Positions 6,062 through 37,410 of a stretch of 39,214 nt of DNA are shown piece after piece. Source of the stretch: a virus (Duplodnaviria; Heunggongvirae; Uroviricota; Caudoviricetes); the IMG/VR virus record IMGVR_UViG_2541047122_000029; one strand, 5' to 3'. Position 1 is the stretch's first letter. Each line of letters opens with the position of its first letter. The position numbers were made by a program, and so were the translations under genes. The notes under the pieces are model-generated. The model searched no databases. It was not told where the DNA came from and saw nothing but the letters and a program-made list of their open reading frames with translations.

Positions 6062-6595
6062 ATGATTGATGCAAAAGTGCTTGAAGGGGTTAAAAACTGG
6101 CTGCGTATTTACGGACGTCTGACCTGCGGTATTCTGGCTGAAAAAATGAATATGCCGCCATCCTCCATGGTTTATTTTCTGCGTGATGCGGTTGATGCAG
6201 GCGTGCTGACGGAATGTAACGGTTTTTATGATATTCCGCGTCCCCGCCCGGTGCAGCCGGTTCGTCGCAAATGCAGCCAGGAGTCTGCGGCTGATGATGT
6301 TCAGTGGTGCAGCTTCAGAAAATCCCTGCCGTGGATTGAAGGGCATGATATTCCGTCGATGGCGTGGGAATTTGCTCAGGGCGTGCTGACCTGTGAAACC
6401 GTTTATGTGGTGGCTGAAGTTGATGAGCAGGCCATGAAAGAAGGCGTGCCCCAGTTTGTGATGTCGTATATCGACATCCGCCTGGGCGTCATTATCTGCG
6501 GTTTAAGCGGCTGGAATATCACCTCGCGCGTTCTGCGTTACCTGATTGTTGACCGGACGGCCGCGCCTGCCGGGATATCAGCGGAGGTGGCGTAA
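6062..6595 (+). CDS. Hypothetical early protein
   Basis: 177-aa ORF packed 3 nt after the previous stop. Confidence 0.6.
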   Translation: MIDAKVLEGVKNWLRIYGRLTCGILAEKMNMPPSSMVYFLRDAVDAGVLTECNGFYDIPRPRPVQPVRRKCSQESAADDVQWCSFRKSLPWIEGHDIPSMAWEFAQGVLTCETVYVVAEVDEQAMKEGVPQFVMSYIDIRLGVIICGLSGWNITSRVLRYLIVDRTAAPAGISAEVA

Positions 6596-7113: not shown

Positions 7114-7665
7114 ATGATGATATTACAACCCATGGGGAGAAAAGGCCGTGCACCCGCTCATGTTCGCGCATGGACACCTGAAGAAGATGCGCTGCTGATT
7201 GCGCTTTATCCATCCACCCCGGTTAAGGATATTGCTGTCAGGATAAAAAGAAGTTTCTGGGGTGTACATAACCGGATTGTTTTATTACGCGGTACTTACC
7301 CGGAGTTGCTCAAATGCAAACGCCTCAGATTTAAACCTGATGAAGATAAATTTATCCGAAAAAATGCCAGAACAATGACCGGTAAGCAAATAGGAGAATA
7401 TCTGGGGCGAGACCGGGATTCTGTCCACAATCGGGCGCGATATATTGGCGTAAGCATGAAAAAATACGGAGAGTTGCTGCCCTTCACCCGCATACCTGAC
7501 GATGATGTTCGTCTTATTCGTGAATTACGGGATGCTGAATCACCACGGCGTCTTACCTTTAGGGAAATCGGCGAGAAATTTGAATTATCCGAGGGCACGG
7601 TGAGTTTTATTTATCACCGTCGTCGGACTGCCGAAGATGTTGTATTACGGGAATTAATGCCATGA
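7114..7665 (+). CDS. Hypothetical protein with three tandem HTH-like repeats (putative DNA-binding)
   Basis: 183 aa; three repeats of about 45 aa (WTPEEDALLIALYP.., KPDEDKFIRKNARTMTGKQIGEYLG.., DDDVRLIRELRD..LTFREIGEKFELSEGTV); RBS GGGGGTGA upstream. Confidence 0.6.
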   Translation: MMILQPMGRKGRAPAHVRAWTPEEDALLIALYPSTPVKDIAVRIKRSFWGVHNRIVLLRGTYPELLKCKRLRFKPDEDKFIRKNARTMTGKQIGEYLGRDRDSVHNRARYIGVSMKKYGELLPFTRIPDDDVRLIRELRDAESPRRLTFREIGEKFELSEGTVSFIYHRRRTAEDVVLRELMP

Positions 7666-7973
7666 TAACGACATTATTTGTTGAATCAGATGAACCCCTT
7701 GTGTGTGCCGTCGGAATGCCGGTCTGTGGCGGAACGCTGACCGGTGTTTATTTCGGGGATTTGCGCGGTTATCCCTGGCATTCACTGAATGATGCTTTCC
7801 CGCCTGATATGGAGGCTGTCGTGCTGATTGTTCAGTATGGTGACCAACAGGAACTGCGCATCGGCCATATGGGGTATGAAGGCTTTTTTATTGATGAAGA
7901 AACCGGAGCCTGCCTTGAAGATGAGGACGGACAGGTGACGCACTGGTGCCATATTTCAGCTTTACCGGAATGA
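7662..7973 (+). CDS. Hypothetical early protein
   Basis: 103-aa ORF overlapping the previous stop by 4 nt. Confidence 0.55.
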   Translation: MITTLFVESDEPLVCAVGMPVCGGTLTGVYFGDLRGYPWHSLNDAFPPDMEAVVLIVQYGDQQELRIGHMGYEGFFIDEETGACLEDEDGQVTHWCHISALPE

Positions 7974-8338
7974 CGGGAGGTGAATGCGTGAGAAGTTATA
8001 TTGATAATGAAAAACTGAAGACAATCAGCGACTGTCTTAGCTTGCTGGCAAAAATAAAAGAAACCATTGAAGAGATTAAATTTCAGCTTGAATACGAACC
8101 CTGTGGCGATGATACATGGCGTAACTCTGCCAGAAAAGCACTGGCTGTCTTTCAGAAACAACGCCGGACTGTTGAATACCGCCTTGCTGTATTGCGCCAG
8201 GAGGAAAAGGAAAGAAATATAAGACGTCATGAACTCGTTAATGATTTTCTTGTTCGTGAATTAAAGGAGCGTGTGCCGGAGTCGGTATTTTTTGAGTGTG
8301 AGGCTGTTGCCCGTAGCAAAGCACTGGAAACTGATTAA
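7970..8338 (+). CDS. Hypothetical early protein
   Basis: In-frame ATG at 7970 overlaps the upstream stop (ATGA); track ORF 7946-8338 begins earlier; alternative GTG 7988 after GGGAGG. Confidence 0.5.
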   Translation: MTGGECVRSYIDNEKLKTISDCLSLLAKIKETIEEIKFQLEYEPCGDDTWRNSARKALAVFQKQRRTVEYRLAVLRQEEKERNIRRHELVNDFLVRELKERVPESVFFECEAVARSKALETD

Positions 8339-8350
8339 ACAGGCAGGTGA

Positions 8351-8686
8351 ATGATGAGTATTGAATTAAGATCGTCTTATGAATATCGTAAAATTCTCAT
8401 CGCCGGAGGCATGAAACCGGAAGATGCAGAAAAAATTGTTTCTTTTATGGATAAAGAATGTGACAAACGGGATATGCCAGAAATTATTATGGATGACATG
8501 ATTCTGCATTCAGCCGTAGCGTTAAGCCCGTTATGGATTGTGCATTCTCTTGCTGAAATTGCCAAAGGCACCGATAAACAGGCAGCTGTTGCTGCCCTTC
8601 AGACGCTTAATGAAATGCGTATATCTCCACGCCCGACATTAATACATATGATTCTCTCCAGTATGGAGGATAAAGCAAATGAATAG
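8351..8686 (+). CDS. Hypothetical early protein
   Basis: 111-aa ORF; AGGTGA RBS before the start. Confidence 0.55.
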   Translation: MMSIELRSSYEYRKILIAGGMKPEDAEKIVSFMDKECDKRDMPEIIMDDMILHSAVALSPLWIVHSLAEIAKGTDKQAAVAALQTLNEMRISPRPTLIHMILSSMEDKANE

Positions 8687-8876
8687 TCTACCCGCTGGAT
8701 GGGCGCGGCCACTAATGGCCAGGAAGCATCATTTTTTTAAAACAGGCGAAAATATCAGTATATGTGGACGGTGGTTATATCTGGCTCATAATCGCGAGCC
8801 GGATACATTTGAAAGCCCTGATGACTGTGCCGAATGCCGCAGAAGAGTGAATAAGGAGAAAGATAATGGACAATAG
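8679..8876 (+). CDS. Hypothetical small Cys-containing protein (possible zinc ribbon)
   Basis: 65 aa; Cys at ICGRW and CAEC; overlaps both neighbours. Confidence 0.45.
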   Translation: MNSLPAGWARPLMARKHHFFKTGENISICGRWLYLAHNREPDTFESPDDCAECRRRVNKEKDNGQ

Positions 8877-9162
8877 TTCTCTGTTGTTCTGGTGCTTATA
8901 TATCACATCCTTTTTCGGCGCATTTGTTATTACCCGGTGGTTATGTCGAAAAATCATCTGCTTTTTTGATAAAAGACATCCGGTTGAACGGGCGGCTGAT
9001 GCGCTCATTCAGCAGGCCATTGTGTTATATAGCGGTGAATTTTTCTGCCGAATAACAACCAGAGATGGCTGGCACATAATGATTATTCCACCAACACACC
9101 ATGCCCGGTGGGATGAGGCAGAAAAGGCTTTCCATGTCCGTAAAAAGGTAAATACGGTATGA
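8866..9162 (+). CDS. Hypothetical protein with N-terminal transmembrane helix
   Basis: 98 aa; hydrophobic N-terminus LLFWCLYITSFFGAFVITRWL. Confidence 0.5.
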   Translation: MDNSSLLFWCLYITSFFGAFVITRWLCRKIICFFDKRHPVERAADALIQQAIVLYSGEFFCRITTRDGWHIMIIPPTHHARWDEAEKAFHVRKKVNTV

Positions 9163-9668
9163 GAGGAAAACTGATATCCGCCATTCATGTGGCAAAGCGC
9201 GAGCTTGCCCTGGATGATGAGACTTATACATCCGCGCTGCTGGCAGCCACCGGCAAAACCAGCTGCCGGGATATGTCACCGGATGAGTTATCCCGCGTGC
9301 TGGATGTTTTCAAAAAACGCGGTTTTAAAGTGCGCCAGAAGCCGGTTAACCAGGCCTTAAAACCGGGTACGGTGACCGCCAAAATTCGTGCCATCTGGAG
9401 GGTGATGCACCGGCAGGGCTTTATCTCTGATGGTGCGGAAACCGCCCTTAACCGCTGGGTGAAATCGCAGACGGCCGCGCAGAACGGTGGCGAAGGTGTG
9501 GCAAACTGGCAGTGGCTGGAGCAACACCCCGCCCTGGCCTCAGATGTGCTGGAGCGTCTCAAGCGATGGCACCGCCGCAAAATGCTGGCCGCGATGGGAA
9601 TGCCCGAACGCACGCTGATGGGGTATGACGCCGTTTGCAGGCAGTATGAAAAATCACTTCCCCGTTAA
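9159..9668 (+). CDS. GemA-like protein (Mu gp16-like)
   Basis: 169 aa; N-terminal ...LISAIHVAKRELALDDETY... resembles the Mu GemA family as I recall it; last gene of the early operon, before a strong terminator. Confidence 0.55.
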   Translation: MRGKLISAIHVAKRELALDDETYTSALLAATGKTSCRDMSPDELSRVLDVFKKRGFKVRQKPVNQALKPGTVTAKIRAIWRVMHRQGFISDGAETALNRWVKSQTAAQNGGEGVANWQWLEQHPALASDVLERLKRWHRRKMLAAMGMPERTLMGYDAVCRQYEKSLPR

Positions 9669-9672
9669 CCCC

Positions 9673-9706
9673 AAATCCCGCCACAGCGCGGGATTTTTAT
9701 TTTAAA
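9673..9706 (+). terminator. Rho-independent terminator ending the early operon
   Basis: Perfect 9-bp stem AAATCCCGC (9673-9681) / GCGGGATTT (9688-9696), 6-nt loop, then TTATTTTAAA. Confidence 0.8.
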
Positions 9707-9737
9707 CTTACCGGGAACGCGAGAACCGGAGGCTGAT

Positions 9738-10163
9738 ATGGCAGAAACTCAGATGAGCATGTTTGGTGGTGACAGTGAGCAACTGCACGCCCTTATCGAC
9801 CGCCTTGATGACATCCCTGATGATGTTCTCAAAAAGAACTGGCCACGGACCCTGTCAGAACTGGTTGAAGTCACCGGCGCAGAACTTCAGCGTCAGGGGA
9901 TTGAGCCGGTACTGGCCGGTAAACTGGCACGCAAGGTGGCTGCGGCTCAGGCCGCCTATATGGGCGGACGGGGTTATTACCTGCCGGTCGGGGAATCTCT
10001 CTTTGCCGAGCTGCGAAACAATGAGATATTTTCGCGCTGGGACCGGGGCGAGAAAATTGAATCCCTTCGCCGACATTACCGGATGTCAGAAACCCAGATT
10101 TATACCGTCATACGTGAACAGCGCCGTCTGCATCTGGCAAGAACGCAACCGCCACTTTTCTGA
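9738..10163 (+). CDS. Mor/C-family transcriptional activator (middle/late gene activator)
   Basis: 141 aa; resembles Mu Mor/C (acidic N-terminus, C-terminal HTH ...SETQIYTVIREQRRL...). Only one member of this family is present in the window. Confidence 0.75.
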   Translation: MAETQMSMFGGDSEQLHALIDRLDDIPDDVLKKNWPRTLSELVEVTGAELQRQGIEPVLAGKLARKVAAAQAAYMGGRGYYLPVGESLFAELRNNEIFSRWDRGEKIESLRRHYRMSETQIYTVIREQRRLHLARTQPPLF

Positions 10164-10167
10164 TATT

Positions 10168-10181
10168 CCGCAAAGCCTGCC
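10168..10181 (+). promoter_or_regulatory. Candidate activator-binding motif of the lysis/late promoter
   Basis: CCGCAAAGCCTGCC, 54 bp upstream of the endolysin ATG; near-identical motif at 18095-18108 upstream of gene I. Confidence 0.4.
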
Positions 10182-10234
10182 GCCTTTCCTTCACCGTTAC
10201 GCTGACTCAGAGAACATCATGAGACAGCGTAACA

Positions 10235-10735
10235 ATGCCAAAACTCCCCGCACCACTGCGTAAAAAGCTGATTGCCCTTGTTCTGGCCGGTGCCGGGACG
10301 TTCACGATTGCCACGCATTACACCGGTTACTGGGAAGGGAAAGAAAACTCCACGTATATCGATCCCACCGGTACACCCACCATCTGTTACGGCCATACCG
10401 GCCCGGATGTGAAACCGGGTATGACCCTGACGGATGAAGAATGCCTGGAACTACTGGAAAAGGACATGAAATGGGCCTTTGCGGCCATTGATCGGCGTGT
10501 TCAGGTGCCGCTTACCCGTGGTCAGACGGTGGCGCTGGCTTCGTGGATCTTCTGGGCTGGTGAAACGAACTTCCGCAACTCCACGCTTCTGCGCCTGATC
10601 AATGCCGGGCAGATGCCCGCGTCCTGTAAGCAGTATATCCGCTGGATTTATTCAAAGGGGGTGAAACTTCCCGGCCTTGAGGCCCGCCGTTCGGCGGATG
10701 AATGGTTATGTCGCTACGACTTGCCGAAAGTCTGA
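10235..10735 (+). CDS. SAR endolysin (phage lysozyme, T4-lysozyme/GH24-like)
   Basis: 166 aa; N-terminal weakly hydrophobic signal-anchor-release segment LIALVLAGAGTFTIATHY; YWEGKENSTYIDPTGTPTICYGHTG contains the Glu-Asp-Thr catalytic pattern. Confidence 0.85.
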   Translation: MPKLPAPLRKKLIALVLAGAGTFTIATHYTGYWEGKENSTYIDPTGTPTICYGHTGPDVKPGMTLTDEECLELLEKDMKWAFAAIDRRVQVPLTRGQTVALASWIFWAGETNFRNSTLLRLINAGQMPASCKQYIRWIYSKGVKLPGLEARRSADEWLCRYDLPKV

Positions 10736-11410: not shown

Positions 11411-11638
11411 ATGGATGATTCAGATCGTGCTCAGGCTGTGATGGAGCGGGGATCAGAACGCGCCCTTTGTAACCGGCTGACACGTAAGCGCCGGGCAATG
11501 GATGCTCCGGGTAGACGTATTTGCGCGGACTGTGGCGGAGAGATCCCCGCCGCGCGTCTTGTTGCTGTGCCGGATGCCATCCGTTGTGTGAACTGCCAGA
11601 ACATCATGGAGGCCCGTCATGTGGGTCAGCATCGTTAA
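11411..11638 (+). CDS. TraR/DksA-type C4 zinc-finger protein
   Basis: 75 aa from ATG 11411 (RBS AAGGAAAAAGG); CADCGGEIP...RCVNCQ four-Cys motif. Confidence 0.6.
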   Translation: MDDSDRAQAVMERGSERALCNRLTRKRRAMDAPGRRICADCGGEIPAARLVAVPDAIRCVNCQNIMEARHVGQHR

Positions 11639-12797: not shown

Positions 12798-14461
12798 TGA
12801 ATAACGCCGAAGAACTCTCCCCCTTACTGACGAATACCGTCTCCACCCGCAAAATTGATCTGGCCGGTGAAAAAGCCCTGCTGGGCGTGGATGTGCCGGA
12901 CAGCCTTGATTTGCCCGGTGATATGCCGGTATTTCTGGATTATCAGGCCCGCTGGTTTGAGGATGAAAGCGAGGTCTGCATCGCGGAAAAATCCCGCCGC
13001 ACCGGGCTTACCTGGGCGGAAGCCGGGCGTAACGTCATTACCGCTGCAAAACCGAAGCGGCGCGGTGGCCGCAATGTGTTTTATGTGGGGTCAAAGCAGG
13101 AGATGGCGCTGGAATATATTTCTGCCTGTGCACTGTTCTCCCGTGCCTTTAACCAGCTGGCAGATGCTGATGTGTATGAGCAGACCTTCTGGGATCGGGA
13201 TAAAAAAGAAGAAATTCTGACCTACATGATCCGCTTTCCGAACAGTGGATTCAAAATTCAGGCACTGTCTTCCCGTCCATCAAACCTGCGCGGCCTTCAG
13301 GGGGATGTGGTGATTGATGAAGCCGCGTTCCACGAGTCACTGGATGAGCTTCTCAAGGCGGCAATGGCGCTTACCATGTGGGGCGCGCGCGTGCGTATTA
13401 TCTCCACGCATAACGGCGTCGATAATCTGTTTAATCAGTACATTCAGGAAGCCCGCGAAGGGCGCAAGGATTACAGCGTCCACCGCATTACCCTGGATGA
13501 TGCCATTGCGGACGGGCTGTACCGTCGTATCTGTTATGTCACCGGCCGCGAATGGTCACCGGAAAGCGAGCAGAAGTGGCGTGATGATCTCTACAAAAAC
13601 GCCCCGACCCGTGAGGATGCCGACGAGGAATACGGCTGTATCCCGAAAAAATCCGGCGGTGCCTATATTCCTCACGCGCTTATTGAAATGGCGATGATCC
13701 GCGACATCCCGATTCTGACGTTTGAAGCCCCGGACGACTTCATCAGCCGTGCCGCATGGCTGCGTGAATCGGAAGTTTTAACCTGGTGTGAAGAACATTT
13801 AAAACCGCTTACAGAGAAATTAAATCCCCGTTCCCGCTTCAGCTTCGGGGAAGATTTTGCCCGCACCGGTGACCTGTCCTGCTTTGTGCTGCTGGAAATC
13901 ACCGAATCCCTGGCAAAACGCGAGGTGTTTCGCGTGGAGCTGCGTAACCTGCCATATGCCCAGCAGGAGCAGGTGATGATGTACATCCTGACCCGCGTTC
14001 CGGCGCTGACTGGCGCGGCGTTCGATGCCACCGGTAACGGCGGCTATCTGGCCGAAGCCGCGCTGCTGGCCTTTGGCCCGGACATCATCGACTGCGTGAT
14101 GTTATCGCCGAAGTGGTACGGCGAGTGGATGCCAAAACTGAAGGCCGAGTTTGAAGATCAGAATATCCTCGTCGCCCGCCATCAGACCACGCTTGATGAT
14201 TTGCGCCATGTGAAGGTGGTGAACGGTATCCCGCAAATCGACAAGGGGCGCACGAAGGACCAGAACGCAACGGCTGTGAACGCCCGCCGCCATGGTGATT
14301 TTGCCGTGGCGCTCTGTATGGCAAACCGGGCGTCATACATGGAGGGTTTCATCCTGGATGAATCAGCCTGTCAGGCGCTGCCGGAGCGGTCGCGGGCCAT
14401 GGAGGGCGGTTATCGTGATGACGATGAGGCATATCATGAATTTGATCGGGGGTGCTGGTAG
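12797..14461 (+). CDS. Terminase large subunit (Mu gp28-like)
   Basis: 554 aa; ATPase region followed by nuclease-like C-terminal region; position before the portal. Confidence 0.85.
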   Translation: MNNAEELSPLLTNTVSTRKIDLAGEKALLGVDVPDSLDLPGDMPVFLDYQARWFEDESEVCIAEKSRRTGLTWAEAGRNVITAAKPKRRGGRNVFYVGSKQEMALEYISACALFSRAFNQLADADVYEQTFWDRDKKEEILTYMIRFPNSGFKIQALSSRPSNLRGLQGDVVIDEAAFHESLDELLKAAMALTMWGARVRIISTHNGVDNLFNQYIQEAREGRKDYSVHRITLDDAIADGLYRRICYVTGREWSPESEQKWRDDLYKNAPTREDADEEYGCIPKKSGGAYIPHALIEMAMIRDIPILTFEAPDDFISRAAWLRESEVLTWCEEHLKPLTEKLNPRSRFSFGEDFARTGDLSCFVLLEITESLAKREVFRVELRNLPYAQQEQVMMYILTRVPALTGAAFDATGNGGYLAEAALLAFGPDIIDCVMLSPKWYGEWMPKLKAEFEDQNILVARHQTTLDDLRHVKVVNGIPQIDKGRTKDQNATAVNARRHGDFAVALCMANRASYMEGFILDESACQALPERSRAMEGGYRDDDEAYHEFDRGCW

Positions 14462-16050: not shown

Positions 16051-17365
16051 TTTAGGTTATGCCGCCACGCTTCCCTCAAAAGAGGCGGTGGCATACTTCC
16101 GCGCCAAAGGGGCGCATATCAGCTGGAACTGGTTCGAAACAGACGCGGATGTTCATGCCCGTTCATTCACGGCGGCAAAAGCGGCACGCCTGGACGTACT
16201 GACCACACTACAGGCGGAAGTGCAGCGTGCTGTTGATGAGGGGATTTCACAGAAAGCATTTATCCGCACACTGACACCCCGCCTGCAAAAGCTGGGATGG
16301 TGGGGAAAGCAGATTGTGGTGGACAGCGCCGGTAACGCAGAAGAAGTGCAACTGGGCAGTCCCCGCCGTCTGGCGCTGATTTACAACGTGAACACCCGCG
16401 TGGCTTACAATGCCGGGCGTTACACGCAGATGATGAACAACACGGACACGCATCCGTTCTGGCAGTATGTGGCGGTGATGGACAGCCGCACCCGCCCGGC
16501 GCATTCCGCCCTTAACGGGCTGGTATTCCGCTATGACGATCCGTTCTGGAATACACACTACCCACCCAATGGCTGGAACTGCCGCTGCCGTGTCCGGCCA
16601 TTGTCTCAGGCCCGTCTGGATGCGATGGGGCTGTCTGTTTCATCCGGTCAGGATCATCTTTCCACCCGCAATGTTGAGGCTGGCGTGGATAAGCAGACCG
16701 GAGAAGTCAGAGAAATGCCGGTGACCACATATTCAGATGGCACCAGAACCATGACACCGGATGTGGGCTGGTCATATAACCCCGGCTCGGCGGCGTTCGG
16801 CACAGACCAGGCGTTGATCCGTAAACTGATCGAGGTGAAAAGCCCGGCGCTGCGGGAAATGGTGGTGCAGGAGATGAACAACAGCCCGGAGCGGCAGCTG
16901 GCGTTCCGCATCTGGGCAAAAAACATCATGAAAACCCGGCGAGGCGGTAACGATATCCGCACGCTGGGCTTTATGACCGAAAGTATTGCGCAGGCGGTGG
17001 AAAGCCGGACGGGAACGCCACCGGCCCGCCTGCTGGCGATGAGCGGTAAAAATGTGCTCCATGCGGACAGCATGAAACATCAGAATGACGGTATCGCCCT
17101 GACGCCGGAGGATTTCGGTCGATTACCGGCAATGCTGGCAAAGCCAAAAGCGGTGCTGTGGGACAAACGCCACAACAATCTGATGTATATCGTGGAAAGT
17201 AAGGATAGCAGTGTGCAGATTGCCGTTAATGCGCCGTACAGCCTGAAGCGTCAGCCGGATAAACTGGATGTGATTGTGAATGCTTACCGGGTTATCAATA
17301 TGGATAAGCTGAAATCGGATATCCGGGGTGGAATGCTTGAGGTACTGGAAGGAGATATTGATTAA
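16034..17365 (+). CDS. Head morphogenesis protein (Mu F / gp30-like)
   Basis: 443 aa; conserved ...RPAHSALNGLVFRYDDPFW...PPNGWNCRCRV... motif typical of the Mu F / SPP1 gp7 family. Confidence 0.85.
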   Translation: MAQGIDLGYAATLPSKEAVAYFRAKGAHISWNWFETDADVHARSFTAAKAARLDVLTTLQAEVQRAVDEGISQKAFIRTLTPRLQKLGWWGKQIVVDSAGNAEEVQLGSPRRLALIYNVNTRVAYNAGRYTQMMNNTDTHPFWQYVAVMDSRTRPAHSALNGLVFRYDDPFWNTHYPPNGWNCRCRVRPLSQARLDAMGLSVSSGQDHLSTRNVEAGVDKQTGEVREMPVTTYSDGTRTMTPDVGWSYNPGSAAFGTDQALIRKLIEVKSPALREMVVQEMNNSPERQLAFRIWAKNIMKTRRGGNDIRTLGFMTESIAQAVESRTGTPPARLLAMSGKNVLHADSMKHQNDGIALTPEDFGRLPAMLAKPKAVLWDKRHNNLMYIVESKDSSVQIAVNAPYSLKRQPDKLDVIVNAYRVINMDKLKSDIRGGMLEVLEGDID

Positions 17366-17460
17366 CGGTCAGTGGCGGGGGTTGAACCCGCATACATGAT
17401 CCACCCGGAGGCAGGCACCGACTTTACCAGTTAAGCGTACACTGACCGCCTGTTTATTTT
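17366..17460 (+). other. Structured intergenic element between F and G (long-range inverted repeat plus T-run)
   Basis: CGGTCAGTG (17366-17374) / CACTGACCG (17440-17448) enclose an inner hairpin GCGGG..CCCGC (17375-17391); followed by CCTGTTTATTTTAT. Confidence 0.4.
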
Positions 17461-17486
17461 ATATTCATCCTTTATGCGGAGGCAAT

Positions 17487-17960
17487 ATGTCATCCATTGA
17501 TGCCGCTGTCGTTGTTGACGTTACGCGTCTCCAGCGGGTCTTTGCCCGGCTTCAGTTTGTGGGTGGAGGGAAAGACCTGGCCCGCAGTGTGGCGGCGAGT
17601 CTTCTGTCATCGTCAGAAATGGCGTTTGAACAGGAAAAAGAGCCGGACGGCGAACGCTGGCATGACTGGTCAGATCCTTACCGCAAGTGGCGTACCCGTA
17701 AGGGATACATGCCCGGCAAAATCCTGACGCTGAACGGCGATCTGGCCCGACGCCTGACCACGGATTATGGCGATACCTGGGCGCTGATTGGATCAAATGA
17801 GCCTTATGCGGCCATTCATCAGTGGGGTGGCCTGCCAGGTATGCCGCCTGGACCGGCGGCCATTGGTGCACGTCCGTATATGGGCTTTGATCAGGTGGCA
17901 GAGCAGGAGATCATGGACGAAATCAGAAAACGCTTTAAAAAGGCCACAGAAACGCCTTAA
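17487..17960 (+). CDS. Virion morphogenesis protein (Mu G / gp31-like)
   Basis: 157 aa; resembles the Mu G family as I recall it; positioned between F and I. Confidence 0.7.
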   Translation: MSSIDAAVVVDVTRLQRVFARLQFVGGGKDLARSVAASLLSSSEMAFEQEKEPDGERWHDWSDPYRKWRTRKGYMPGKILTLNGDLARRLTTDYGDTWALIGSNEPYAAIHQWGGLPGMPPGPAAIGARPYMGFDQVAEQEIMDEIRKRFKKATETP

Positions 17961-18094
17961 TTGTTTAAGGTATGCAAATGCATTACCTTACCCCCTTCAG
18001 GCGCGTGTCGTGATTTTCTAACCTGTATTTAACGGGCTTTAAAATCTGCGTGAAGCGCCTTTGTATTTTTCCCCTGGAAGCACTTCCTGAAATC

Positions 18095-18108
18095 CCGCAA
18101 AACCCGCC
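18095..18108 (+). promoter_or_regulatory. Candidate activator-binding motif of the head-gene late promoter
   Basis: CCGCAAAACCCGCC in the 176-bp gap upstream of gene I; shares CCGCAAARCCYGCC with 10168-10181. Confidence 0.4.
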
Positions 18109-18136
18109 CTGAAAATTCCCGGCTTATGCTGCCGGA

Positions 18137-32971: not shown

Positions 32972-33092
32972 AAACATCACCATGTAAATCAATGATAAAA
33001 ACAGGAATAATACTATCGCCATATACAGGCAATGCTTGTCTGAAATAACGCATATTTCAGATGCTGGCTGCTGTGTGCTATGCCCCCGTTAA

Positions 33093-34087: not shown

Positions 34088-34186
34088 GACGCTCTCTTTG
34101 TTGGGCCTTTACTGAATTAACGCAAAATGGCGTTTATCGGTCTGTGGATATGATAATTCAGTTTATTCAGGAACAGGCTGATTATT

Positions 34187-36226
34187 ATGACGTCCAAATG
34201 GGTTCAACTATCATCAATGCCCGGAAACTTTACTGTTAAAGTTTCCGGTGGTACAGCGGCATTTCTTGAGGCTCCCTTTCCTCCGGCCGAAACAAAAGGA
34301 GGAATGACATTTGCTGACTGTCTCATCAGTTTTAATACACGGGATTGCCTGTGGGTAAGGCCAGTATCCGGTGATCCGAGTGTGGAAATTACCGGAGCGG
34401 GTATTGGTGCGGTCATTCCGTTAAGTGCTGATGTTGCCGGTACTGCTGAACCGTCAGACTGGGATAATGCTGAAACACATACCCGTCCGTCAGGAAATGA
34501 AACTGCTTCCAGCTCCCCTTCCTGGTATTACGTGGTGGTTCTTGCTGGTCAGTCAAACGGTATGGCTTACGGTGAAGGTCTGCCACTGCCGGAGACATAT
34601 GACCGCCCCGAACCGCGTATTATGCAGTTAGCCCGTCGCAGTACAGTCACGCCGGGAGGTAAAGCCTGTCAGTATAACGACATCATTCTGGCCGACCACT
34701 GTCTGCATGATGTGCAGGATATGAGTGGAAAAAATCACCCGAAAGCGGATGTGGCTAAAGGGCAATATGGCACCGTGGGTCAGGGGCTTCACATTGCCAA
34801 AAAACTGCTGCCGTTTATTCCGGCAGATGCGGGGATTCTGCTGGTTCCCTGCTGCCGTGGTGGTTCTGCATTCACGGCGGGTGCTGACGGCACGTACAGT
34901 GACAGCACGGGTGCTTCAGAGGACTCAGCCCGCTGGGGTGTGGATAAGCCGCTGTATAAGGACTTAATCAGCCGGACAAAAGCGGCACTGGCGAAGAACC
35001 CGAAAAACCGCCTGCTTGCTGTGGTGTGGATGCAGGGCGAGTTTGATATTGATGCGAAGCCGACGGAGCATTCTGCGCTGTTTCTGGCGATGGTGGAAAA
35101 ATTCCGCGCAGACCTGGCTGAACAGGCGGAACAGTGTACCGGTGGCAGTGCTGCTGGCGTTCCGTGGATTTGTGGTGATACCACGTATTTCTGGAAACAG
35201 AAAAACGAACAGGCATACCAGGCAATCTATGACGGCTACAAAAATAAAACAGATAAAAACATTCATTTCGTCCCATTAATGACAGATGAAAATGGCGCGA
35301 ATGTACCCACCAACAATCCGGCAGAAGACCCGGATATTGAATCCATTGGTTATTACGGCTCAACGTGGCGTAACAGTGCCGCCACCTGGACATCTACGGA
35401 CCGGGCCAGCCATTTCAGTTCATGGGCACGTCGTGGGATTATTTCCGACCGTCTGGCCACGGCAGTTCTGACTCATGCGGGGCGAACCACAGTAAAAGCC
35501 GATGTTCCATCTTCTGAAACTGAAGCACCAGTGCCGTCACCTTCAGAAACTGAAGCAGTAACCACAACACTGCTGTCTTACCGTGTCAGTGAGTCAGAAG
35601 GAAATCTGAAAGCCCAGGGCTGGGAGCCGGCTGGCGGTAAAGCTGAAATTATCAGTGATGCAGGAGGCACAGGTGGTAAGGCAATGAAACTGACCAAGGA
35701 AACAGGTAAATCATCCTGGTATCTGGATCATGATGCCGGTACTGGTGCTGAACTGCTGAAAAATGGTGGTTTAATCAGTTGTCGTTTTAAAGTACCGGGC
35801 GACCTGGTGGCAAACCAGTATGTCATGGCGCTTTACTGGCCGGTTTCCTCTCTGCCGCAGGGTGTCACCCTGACAGGGGATGCAGGGAATAATCTGCTGG
35901 CATCGTTCTACATCCAGACAGACGCAAAAGACCTGAATGTGATGTACCACAATGCAAAAGTGGCAACAAATAACCAGAAACTGGGAACCTTTGGTGCATT
36001 TGATAATGAATGGCATACGCTGGCCTTCCGTTTTGCAGGAAATAACAGCCTTCAGGTTATTCCGGTTATTGATGGTCAGGATGGTGCCGCGTTTACCCTG
36101 ACGCAGTCACCAGTAGGAACTTTCCCGGTGGACAAACTCCGCGTAACGGATATCACAAAAAATGCAACTTACCCGGTGCTGATTGACAGCATTGTGGTGG
36201 AAGTGAAAAAAGCGGTAACAGAATAA
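34187..36226 (+). CDS. Multidomain SGNH/SASA-type carbohydrate esterase with Pro/Ser/Thr/Glu-rich linker and C-terminal lectin-like domain (cargo gene)
   Basis: 679 aa; AGQSNGMAYGEG (catalytic-Ser GQSN block), WMQGEFD and DRASHF motifs match sialate O-acetylesterase-type domains as recalled; linker PSSETEAPVPSPSETEA; no N-terminal signal peptide; sits between gin and com/mom, where Mu has no gene. Confidence 0.75.
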   Translation: MTSKWVQLSSMPGNFTVKVSGGTAAFLEAPFPPAETKGGMTFADCLISFNTRDCLWVRPVSGDPSVEITGAGIGAVIPLSADVAGTAEPSDWDNAETHTRPSGNETASSSPSWYYVVVLAGQSNGMAYGEGLPLPETYDRPEPRIMQLARRSTVTPGGKACQYNDIILADHCLHDVQDMSGKNHPKADVAKGQYGTVGQGLHIAKKLLPFIPADAGILLVPCCRGGSAFTAGADGTYSDSTGASEDSARWGVDKPLYKDLISRTKAALAKNPKNRLLAVVWMQGEFDIDAKPTEHSALFLAMVEKFRADLAEQAEQCTGGSAAGVPWICGDTTYFWKQKNEQAYQAIYDGYKNKTDKNIHFVPLMTDENGANVPTNNPAEDPDIESIGYYGSTWRNSAATWTSTDRASHFSSWARRGIISDRLATAVLTHAGRTTVKADVPSSETEAPVPSPSETEAVTTTLLSYRVSESEGNLKAQGWEPAGGKAEIISDAGGTGGKAMKLTKETGKSSWYLDHDAGTGAELLKNGGLISCRFKVPGDLVANQYVMALYWPVSSLPQGVTLTGDAGNNLLASFYIQTDAKDLNVMYHNAKVATNNQKLGTFGAFDNEWHTLAFRFAGNNSLQVIPVIDGQDGAAFTLTQSPVGTFPVDKLRVTDITKNATYPVLIDSIVVEVKKAVTE

Positions 36227-36231
36227 AAAAA

Positions 36232-36260
36232 TCCCGCCGGTCATGATATGGCTGGCGGGA
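36232..36260. other. Stem-loop immediately downstream of the esterase gene
   Basis: TCCCGCC (36232-36238) / GGCGGGA (36254-36260); preceded by A7 (36224-36230), so it reads as hairpin plus U-run on the minus strand; no U-tract after it on the + strand. Confidence 0.4.
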
Positions 36261-36372
36261 GCTACCTAACCCATAAAGGAAAATAAAAATACTCCCGAAG
36301 GAGTGGTTATCAGTCGCTTCGATGTTTTTACCCGATAACGAATTATGTAGTCAATATCAAAGGTAAGGTTAT

Positions 36373-37139: not shown

Positions 37140-37410
37140 TTTGTTCCAGGTCCAGATAGCTGTAACTATCTGGACCTCCCTTTATGTAGTATCCTGTTGA
37201 TTTGAAACATACTACATATACGCGCGATCCTACCTTCACTGTATAAAAAGTCAATAAAATGATCATTTTATGATCGTTTTCACCACCTAAGTCTTCGTTT
37301 TCTTTAAGTAAATAATCACCGCCCTGAATCATTGTTGATGACTTTTCAATCTATTTGTTGTATCAATTAAACAAATCGAATCGATCGTTTTTGTCGATCG
37401 ATTGCATGAG
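37140..37410. promoter_or_regulatory. com/mom upstream control region (palindromes plus GATC cluster, likely Dam-methylation-sensitive promoter)
   Basis: AT-rich. 12-bp inverted repeat AGGTCCAGATAG (37148-37159) / CTATCTGGACCT (37166-37177); 9-bp inverted repeat ATGTAGTAT (37184-37192) / ATACTACAT (37209-37217); GATC at 37226, 37261, 37272, 37383, 37396. Confidence 0.6.

Follow-up and report, generated by a model that had tools for sequence, protein, structure and literature searches.

C-dependent late promoters of phage Mu have a -10 element and no -35 element, the activator C protecting about -30 to -55, and the C box is an imperfect dyad centred at -43.5 with the consensus TTAT-N5-6-ATAA (PMC2582627, PMC12867686). 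Activation complexes of Mor/C proteins have recently been visualised (bioRxiv 10.1101/2025.05.02.651988). In the Mu sequence, the promoter-proximal half-site ATAA(T/C) of Plys, PI and Pmom begins 28 bp ahead of the -10 when the -10 elements are read as TAGACT, CAAACT and TAAGAT, respectively, and the assignment for Pmom reproduces the published ACCACA/19-bp spacing and agrees with the box centre at -43.5 (PMC2582627). The consensus TTAT-N5-6-ATAA has eight matches in Mu itself, Pmom among them. Two further systems resemble parts of the loci described below. The cI mRNA made from lambda PRM is leaderless and activator-dependent, with six bases between the -10 hexamer and the A of the ATG, and in the IS10 and IS50 transposase genes a fold-back hairpin blocks the translation of read-through transcripts.

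In this study, the window is the whole analysed stretch of 39,214 nucleotides from a tailed phage (IMGVR_UViG_2541047122_000029). This 39-kb sequence is identical to the prophage of E. coli O157:H7 strain Z1813, and related prophage copies were found in 256 of the 5426 complete E. coli genomes searched (~5%), O157:H7 included. Comparison of the annotation with Mu showed that the early genes follow the Mu order (ner-like, transposase A and B, gam, gemA), and that gemA is followed by one Mor-family gene, lysozyme, packaging and head genes, G, protease I and major head T; next come the genes of tail and baseplate, an invertible tail-fibre segment that has a gin-type recombinase, and then com/mom. 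Because this gene order matches that of phage Mu, the window belongs to the Sp18-type Mu-like prophages of E. coli O157:H7, Sp18 having been described as an apparently intact Mu-like prophage (PMC2669165). The literature searched contained neither published work on the promoters of Sp18-type prophages nor transcript or binding data for this phage. ARAGORN found no tRNA over the whole window; the RefSeq annotation of the strain 600029 prophage (L077) places a 'tRNA-OTHER' on the minus strand of the F-G gap, at 18674-18753 (window equivalent 17365-17487).

An earlier note on this DNA had described a motif, CCGCAAARCCYGCC, at 10168-10181 before the endolysin gene and at 18095-18108 before the head protease/scaffold gene. 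Both coordinates are correct, on the + strand (CCGCAAAGCCTGCC and CCGCAAAACCCGCC, respectively), and the window-wide scan for further copies that the note had called for returned these two sites as the sole exact matches. They lie directly upstream of the endolysin gene and of gene I, the places at which Mu has Plys and PI. We consider it quite probable, from the sequence features set out below, that the two copies are parts of activator-dependent sigma-70 late promoters, the counterparts of Mu Plys and PI. The features concerned are as follows.

9669 to 9708, + strand: weak motif-like copy CCCCAAATCCCGCC (9669-9682), forming the 5' arm of the terminator hairpin behind the gemA-like gene
9738 to 10163, + strand: C-like late transcription activator gene (Pfam Mor PF08765, E=2.8e-32)
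10156 to 10181, + strand: lys-promoter block TTTTCTGATATTCCGCAAAGCCTGCC, 20/26 identical with 18083-18108, at about -54 to -29
10196 to 10233, + strand: inverted repeat/RNA hairpin, arms 10196-10209 and 10220-10233, 14 nt, 93% complementary
10198 to 10203, + strand: predicted -10 TACGCT of the lys promoter, 16 bp from the block as in copy 2, kept in all relatives
10235 to 10735, + strand: endolysin gene (Pfam Phage_lysozyme, E=6.3e-37, and annotation), first of the lys/packaging/head operon
18083 to 18108, + strand: gene I promoter block CTTCCTGAAATCCCGCAAAACCCGCC, at about -54 to -29, conserved in relatives
18125 to 18130, + strand: predicted -10 TATGCT of the gene I promoter, from spacing and conservation
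18137 to 19261, + strand: head protease/scaffold gene I (Mu gpI homology from M1)
34108 to 34154, + strand: likely third, weaker promoter, with block TTTACTGAATTAACGCAAAATGGCGT (34108-34133), a 15-bp spacer and TATGAT (34149-34154), found by a loose rule

The motif as originally stated is present but incomplete, being the 3' (promoter-proximal) half of a 26-bp block. In register, 10156-10181 and 18083-18108 are identical at 20 of 26 positions, and the first 8 bases of the lys block are shared with the end of the activator gene (its last codons and stop codon). The 16 bases that follow the block agree at only 3 positions between the copies, and are T-rich before lys and A-rich before gene I; after them come the hexamers TACGCT (10198-10203) and TATGCT (18125-18130), identical at 5/6 (TAYGCT), while the flanks upstream of the blocks agree at 8/33, about chance level. 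The R and Y positions of the motif do not hold as constrained positions, since relatives carry G, T or A at the one and T, C, G or A at the other, and a better description of the box would be TTyCTGAwrTyCCGCAAAnCCnGCC. Copy 2 also contains a 10-bp-spaced direct repeat, AAATCCCGC/AAAACCCGC, seen by eye.

This extended comparison bears on the promoter geometry, which the earlier note had called unresolved given the unequal distances to the start codons. The distances do differ, with 53 and 28 bases between motif and ATG, but the gap from block to -10-like hexamer is 16 bp in both copies; block and hexamer stand in the same register, and the start-codon distances differ because the leader lengths differ. 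Both hexamers retain A-11 and T-7. If the hexamer is numbered -12 to -7, as assumed throughout, the block lies at -54 to -29 and the motif at -42 to -29, and transcription of lys is predicted to start at about 10209-10211. The suggestion that these promoters lack a -35 element in the manner of Mu C-dependent promoters agrees with the sequence: the bases at -35 to -30 are GCCTGC for lys and ACCCGC for gene I, each matching TTGACA at 0/6, and a scan for consensus sigma-70 promoters returned nothing at either site.

In the same numbering, the Mu half-site (C/A)ATAA(T/C) occupies -42 to -36, and the window has CCGCAAA at exactly those positions. Downstream of the half-site both phages have a C-rich -35 region, where the CCnGCC half of the window motif lies, and TACGCT-gac-TCAGAGAA before lys in the window parallels TAGACT-gcca-TCAGAGAA in Mu Plys. 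Because the half-site position, the C-rich -35 region and TCAGAGAA agree, the architecture, and for lys also the core promoter, correspond to those of Mu. The correspondence does not extend to the box sequence. TTAT-N5-6-ATAA is absent from all three sites in the window, its two matches (37038 and 37650) lying elsewhere and being no more than chance would give; we tried to align the block with the Mu Plys box as a homologue, and it aligned only with indels, 2-8 bp out of register, so homology of the box itself is not claimed. A search for inverted repeats with a seed of at least 6 found none inside the blocks, and by eye TyTG-N8-CAAA can be seen around -43.5. A different box sequence is as expected for a protein 39% identical to C.

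That protein is the product of 9738-10163, directly upstream of lys, which is closer to Mu C (39% identity, E=4e-35) than to Mu Mor (27%), with SETQIYTVIREQR as putative recognition helix residues where Mu C has SQPQIYQIIARQR. The RefSeq annotation of the prophage lists one Mor-family gene, and a Mor domain was absent from the seven scanned early-region genes upstream of the activator (7114-9668). Among these early genes, 7114-7665 encodes a 183-aa protein with weak matches to sigma-70 region 4 and a Myb-like HTH, which could be a regulator in place of the missing Mor. We infer that, like Mu C, the C-like protein would bind the block and recruit or reposition host RNA polymerase, at promoters that would each consist of the 26-bp block at -54 to -29, a 16-bp spacer of free sequence and a weak -10 TAYGCT, with no -35; activator-dependent starts would then lie at about 10210, 18137 and 34161, and the third promoter (34108-34154) would drive an accessory gene (DUF6645). 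This proposal builds on what could be observed directly, namely the sequence architecture, the register, the conservation pattern, the synteny and the family of the activator.

The reader of the block might instead be a host factor or another phage protein, a reading that we consider unlikely, though it has more in its favour than the other alternatives discussed below. The block shows no clear dyad of the kind expected for Mor/C and is without the Mu C consensus, and the prophage encodes other DNA-binding or RNA-polymerase-binding proteins, the candidates being a TraR/DksA-family protein (11411-11638) and the early HTH protein (7114-7665). However, TraR/DksA proteins bind RNA polymerase and not DNA, and the position at -54 to -29, the lack of a -35, the synteny with Mu Plys/PI and the C homologue directly upstream all fit the C paradigm (PMC2582627), which argues for the C-like protein as the reader.

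The region upstream of the activator gene was also considered. An intrinsic terminator at 9673-9696, identified by a terminator scan directly after the gemA-like gene, consists of a G+C-rich hairpin of 9 pairs followed by TTATTTT, and its 5' arm is formed by the weak motif-like copy at 9669-9682. This copy was rejected as an autoregulatory site of the activator gene, as its PWM score of 8.6 falls within the shuffle range (0.7-14.5) and it is a terminator arm; another, unrelated hairpin, at 36228, contains its 10-mer AAATCCCGCC too, and its membership of the motif family is doubtful. The terminator hairpin and the AT-rich TTTTTATTTTAAACTT that follows it (9673-9709) are kept even at mosaic junctions that replace the upstream gene (L016, L023), and L022 has lost the 5' arm of the hairpin. 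Past AAACTT, downstream of the gemA terminator, the sequences of relatives diverge sharply, and TAAACT there could serve as the -10 in a promoter of that gene's downstream neighbour, the activator gene.

A second alternative is that the similarity between the two sites is a functionless duplication relic or chance, with lys and gene I expressed by upstream read-through only. For the 14-mer, the shuffle expectation of 0.01 is circular, as the pattern came from these two copies, and when only 10120-10234 and 17961-18136 were shuffled (400 trials), a fairer null, a 12/14 match arose in 13 of the 400 (3%), so that the 14-mer by itself is only mildly unusual and weak evidence. The 20/26 block and the 25/32 composite of block and in-register hexamer, on the other hand, were reached in none of the 400 shuffles, the null maximum being 18/26. 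A PWM built from all variants scored the two sites at 53.5 and 50.1, with a next best of 8.6 and shuffle maxima of 0.7-14.5. A block-like sequence at 6224-6249 (TTTTATGATATTCCGCGTCCCCGCCC), inside an early gene and with no -10 after it, has a PWM score of 14.5, which 2 of 30 shuffles reached, and its resemblance is probably due to chance.

The pattern of conservation also speaks against a relic. In 29 IMG/VR loci with activators 83-100% identical, block and hexamer are kept at both promoters and the spacer stays at 16 bp while its sequence varies (gcctttccttcaccgt, cactttttcccacggt and cccttttttccacggt before lys; ctgaaaattcccggct, ccgaaaaacaccggct and ccaaaaatacccggct before gene I), and relatives with activators 83-88% identical show the same drift in spacer sequence at fixed length. 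The lys block is invariant save one base, although the flanking coding sequence and the spacer have diverged in relatives; the 18 bases upstream of the gene I block are variable and the block is conserved. When CCGCAAANCCNGCC-N16-TANGCT was searched over 2.9 million viral contigs, 53 of the 54 matches in the fetched stretches were of the lys or gene I promoter type of this phage family. The relatives are just moderately diverged, so that the conservation partly reflects shared ancestry; the conservation of TACGCT before lys could alternatively be due to the hairpin that contains it. More distant relatives for footprinting were sought in two scans of genome contigs, of which the first returned nothing and the second one locus, L032, which was ruled out as a footprint relative for its C, 74% identical to Mu C, and its Mu-type promoters, and served for the Mu geometry. 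Within the G-I intergenic region, about 70 bp (17990-18060) are identical in all relatives and thus better conserved than the promoter; this stretch has GATTTT..AACC.GTATTTAACGG in common with the Mu G-I gap, where a strong gyrase site is annotated, and is possibly the counterpart of that site.

Further candidate sites were sought with a loose rule drawn from the first two, CCGCAAA with at most one mismatch followed by TAnnnT at 29-31 bp. Its six matches in the window are about what chance would give (rough estimate ~5), a result that suits the relic or chance reading. All four + strand matches are nevertheless intergenic, just before genes; one of them, at 34120, is the third site, upstream of the DUF6645 gene (34187-36226), and another, the terminator arm at 9669, is doubtful and is not counted. 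Its block has CTGA and CGCAAA in register with the first two, and its core TGAATTAACGCAAA is an exact match to the common core TGAWWTNMCGCAAA. This pattern, itself derived from the three sites it matches, has three exact matches in the window, each in an intergenic gap, on the coding strand, with a start codon 26-54 bp further on. The third-promoter region is 66% identical in E. coli strain 600029, where CTTTTTTGAATTTCCGCAAAA and TATTCT are kept at the same spacing, flanks and spacer having diverged, and the prophage of this strain shows the same three hits. Taken with the shuffles and with blocks that are conserved while adjoining spacers and flanks drift, the retention of the third copy in this relative and the placement of the three core matches leave relic or chance very improbable, and functional promoters remain the preferred reading. 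The third site does not keep the CCnGCC half of the motif, so CGCAAA and TGAWWT are the most constrained parts. We regard 34108-34154 as likely to be a third late promoter of the same design, with a putative transcription start at about 34161.

Other sequences near or like the third site were noted. A perfect inverted copy of the left part of its block (ACTGAATTA) surrounds the predicted +1, at 34154-34162, and a second, imperfect one lies at 34161-34173; strain 600029 retains the downstream copy. In the invertible tail-fibre segment, 33036-33061 forms a perfect 9-bp palindrome, TCTGAAATA-ACGCA-TATTTCAGA, the first 16 bases of which match the third block at 14/16, with a similar ctgtg..TATG after it; this could be a decayed or switchable copy of the third promoter, or a binding site. 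After the DUF6645 gene, a hairpin at 36226-36262 (AAAAAAATCCCGCCGG...CTGGCGGG) with a T run on the minus strand only looks like a terminator of leftward transcription.

No promoter of this type was found before tail gene P, there being no + strand core match within 20-31 kb, and the gene I promoter probably serves the tail genes as well. CCACCGAGCCTGCA at 27584 was rejected as a P-gene promoter, being coding, at the wrong spacing (26) to TACCGT and low in PWM score. A hit at 14224 (CGGTATCCCGCAAA, present in L077 too) was also rejected, as it is coding and has no -10. Before com/mom no promoter block was found; upstream of com, the position of the Mu C box is variable: the window has an imperfect dyad there, strain 600029 TGATA-N4-TATCA. 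A GATC cluster at 37378-37407 (AATCGATCG...GATCGATT), also upstream of com, is shared with the Mu mom regulatory region and is all that is conserved there.

The lys ATG is preceded by a hairpin (10196-10233) of -20.1 kcal/mol, a stability reached by 0 of 200 shuffles (z=-6.9). The 5' arm, which includes the -10, extends to the predicted +1, and the 3' arm ends 1 nt before the lys ATG. RNA from 10210 folds at only -2.9 kcal/mol and is essentially unstructured. The two substitutions that relatives carry in the hairpin are at unpaired positions. Mu (z=-1.7), L032 (z=-2.7) and Pasteurella phage Pmp9 (z=-4.7) each have a hairpin in this position. A 14-codon ORF (MRQRNNAKTPRTTA, 10219-10263), its sequence conserved in relatives, begins in the hairpin loop and runs past the start of lys. 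That the conserved sequence acts as an RNA structure or processing site in read-through transcripts and not as DNA, as the very stable hairpin beside copy 1 and the small one around the second hexamer might suggest, is the least probable alternative of all, since the block is unpaired in the predicted folds, the lys hairpin involves hexamer and leader and not the motif, the region around copy 2 folds no better than shuffles (z=0.07), and an Rfam search of the whole window matched no family.

With the activator gene ending 72 bp ahead of lys and the scan listing no terminator in the gap, every activator transcript would run into lys, and the hairpin would stop those transcripts from making endolysin. 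In the predicted folds, then, the lys start would be masked in read-through transcripts only and free in transcripts from the late promoter. Such a mask may matter, as premature endolysin would be dangerous because the protein has a membrane signal-anchor, and since Mu, a Mu-C-type prophage and a Pasteurella phage have hairpins there too, an endolysin gate could be general among Mu-like phages.

At gene I, 6 nt separate TATGCT from the ATG and there is no Shine-Dalgarno sequence, an arrangement kept in relatives; the hexamer itself sits in the loop of a small inverted repeat, CCGGC/GCCGG. ATG 18137 is the only possible start, because there is an in-frame stop at 18110-18112 and no other start codon. 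Since the ATG begins 6 nt after the -10 hexamer, the gene I mRNA is predicted to be leaderless, starting at about 18137. Weak translation of the full-length protease might be acceptable, because in Mu, according to its annotation, an internal start within I yields the abundant scaffold. As a tentative proposal, for which we think the balance leans somewhat against, the late genes may be licensed twice, in that only transcripts from the activator-dependent promoters could be translated, lys being masked and gene I being readable only as a leaderless message.

These results give the late-promoter box and the exact promoter geometry of Sp18-type Mu-like prophages, and a putative second specificity for comparing Mor/C activators, if the C-like protein reads the box as we propose. 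They also make testable predictions: three start points, a leaderless protease mRNA and a read-through-specific mask on the endolysin start. The accepted view of how this promoter class works is unchanged, and the element is of an ordinary, well-understood kind, late promoters that have a box sequence of their own; the specialist might take an interest only in the predicted leaderless mRNA and the predicted fold-back mask.

Compared with Mu Plys and PI, the two main promoters are alike in lying before lys and gene I, with a Mor/C activator just upstream of lys, and they resemble Mu C-dependent promoters in an element at about -55 to -30 over the -35 region, its position resting on the -10 assignment, and in their T/A-rich spacers. 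They differ in the box, which is not TTAT-N5-6-ATAA; in a block without evident dyad, whereas the C and Mor boxes are imperfect dyads; and in the register of the copies, exact in the window and about 10 bp out between Mu Plys and PI for their 10-bp match (TCCCGCACCT), by our -10 assignment. Mu has C-dependent promoters before P and com/mom (PP and Pmom); in the window none of this type was found there, and a third promoter is instead predicted before an accessory gene. The window phage has one activator, not the Mor-then-C cascade of Mu. As at Mu Pm, a terminator-like dyad lies directly upstream of the activator gene (Mu 9176-9196; window 9673-9696), but unlike at Pm, no Mor gene was detected, there is no -10 at the Mu-equivalent distance, and the weak motif copy is not significant.

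The gene I start recalls lambda PRM-cI in its 6-base gap, its lack of a Shine-Dalgarno sequence and its putatively activator-dependent promoter, but the gene encodes a head protease/scaffold and its start point is predicted; in Mu and L032, gene I has a leader of about 20 nt with a Shine-Dalgarno sequence, unlike in the window. The lys hairpin resembles that of IS10/IS50 in pairing sequence upstream of its own promoter start with the ribosome-binding region, but its predicted function, given the predicted start, would be to guard against premature endolysin made from activator-gene transcripts. By their sequence, the promoters of the window would thus be of the same kind as the C-dependent promoters of Mu with a different box, outside a strict definition of the Mu C box.
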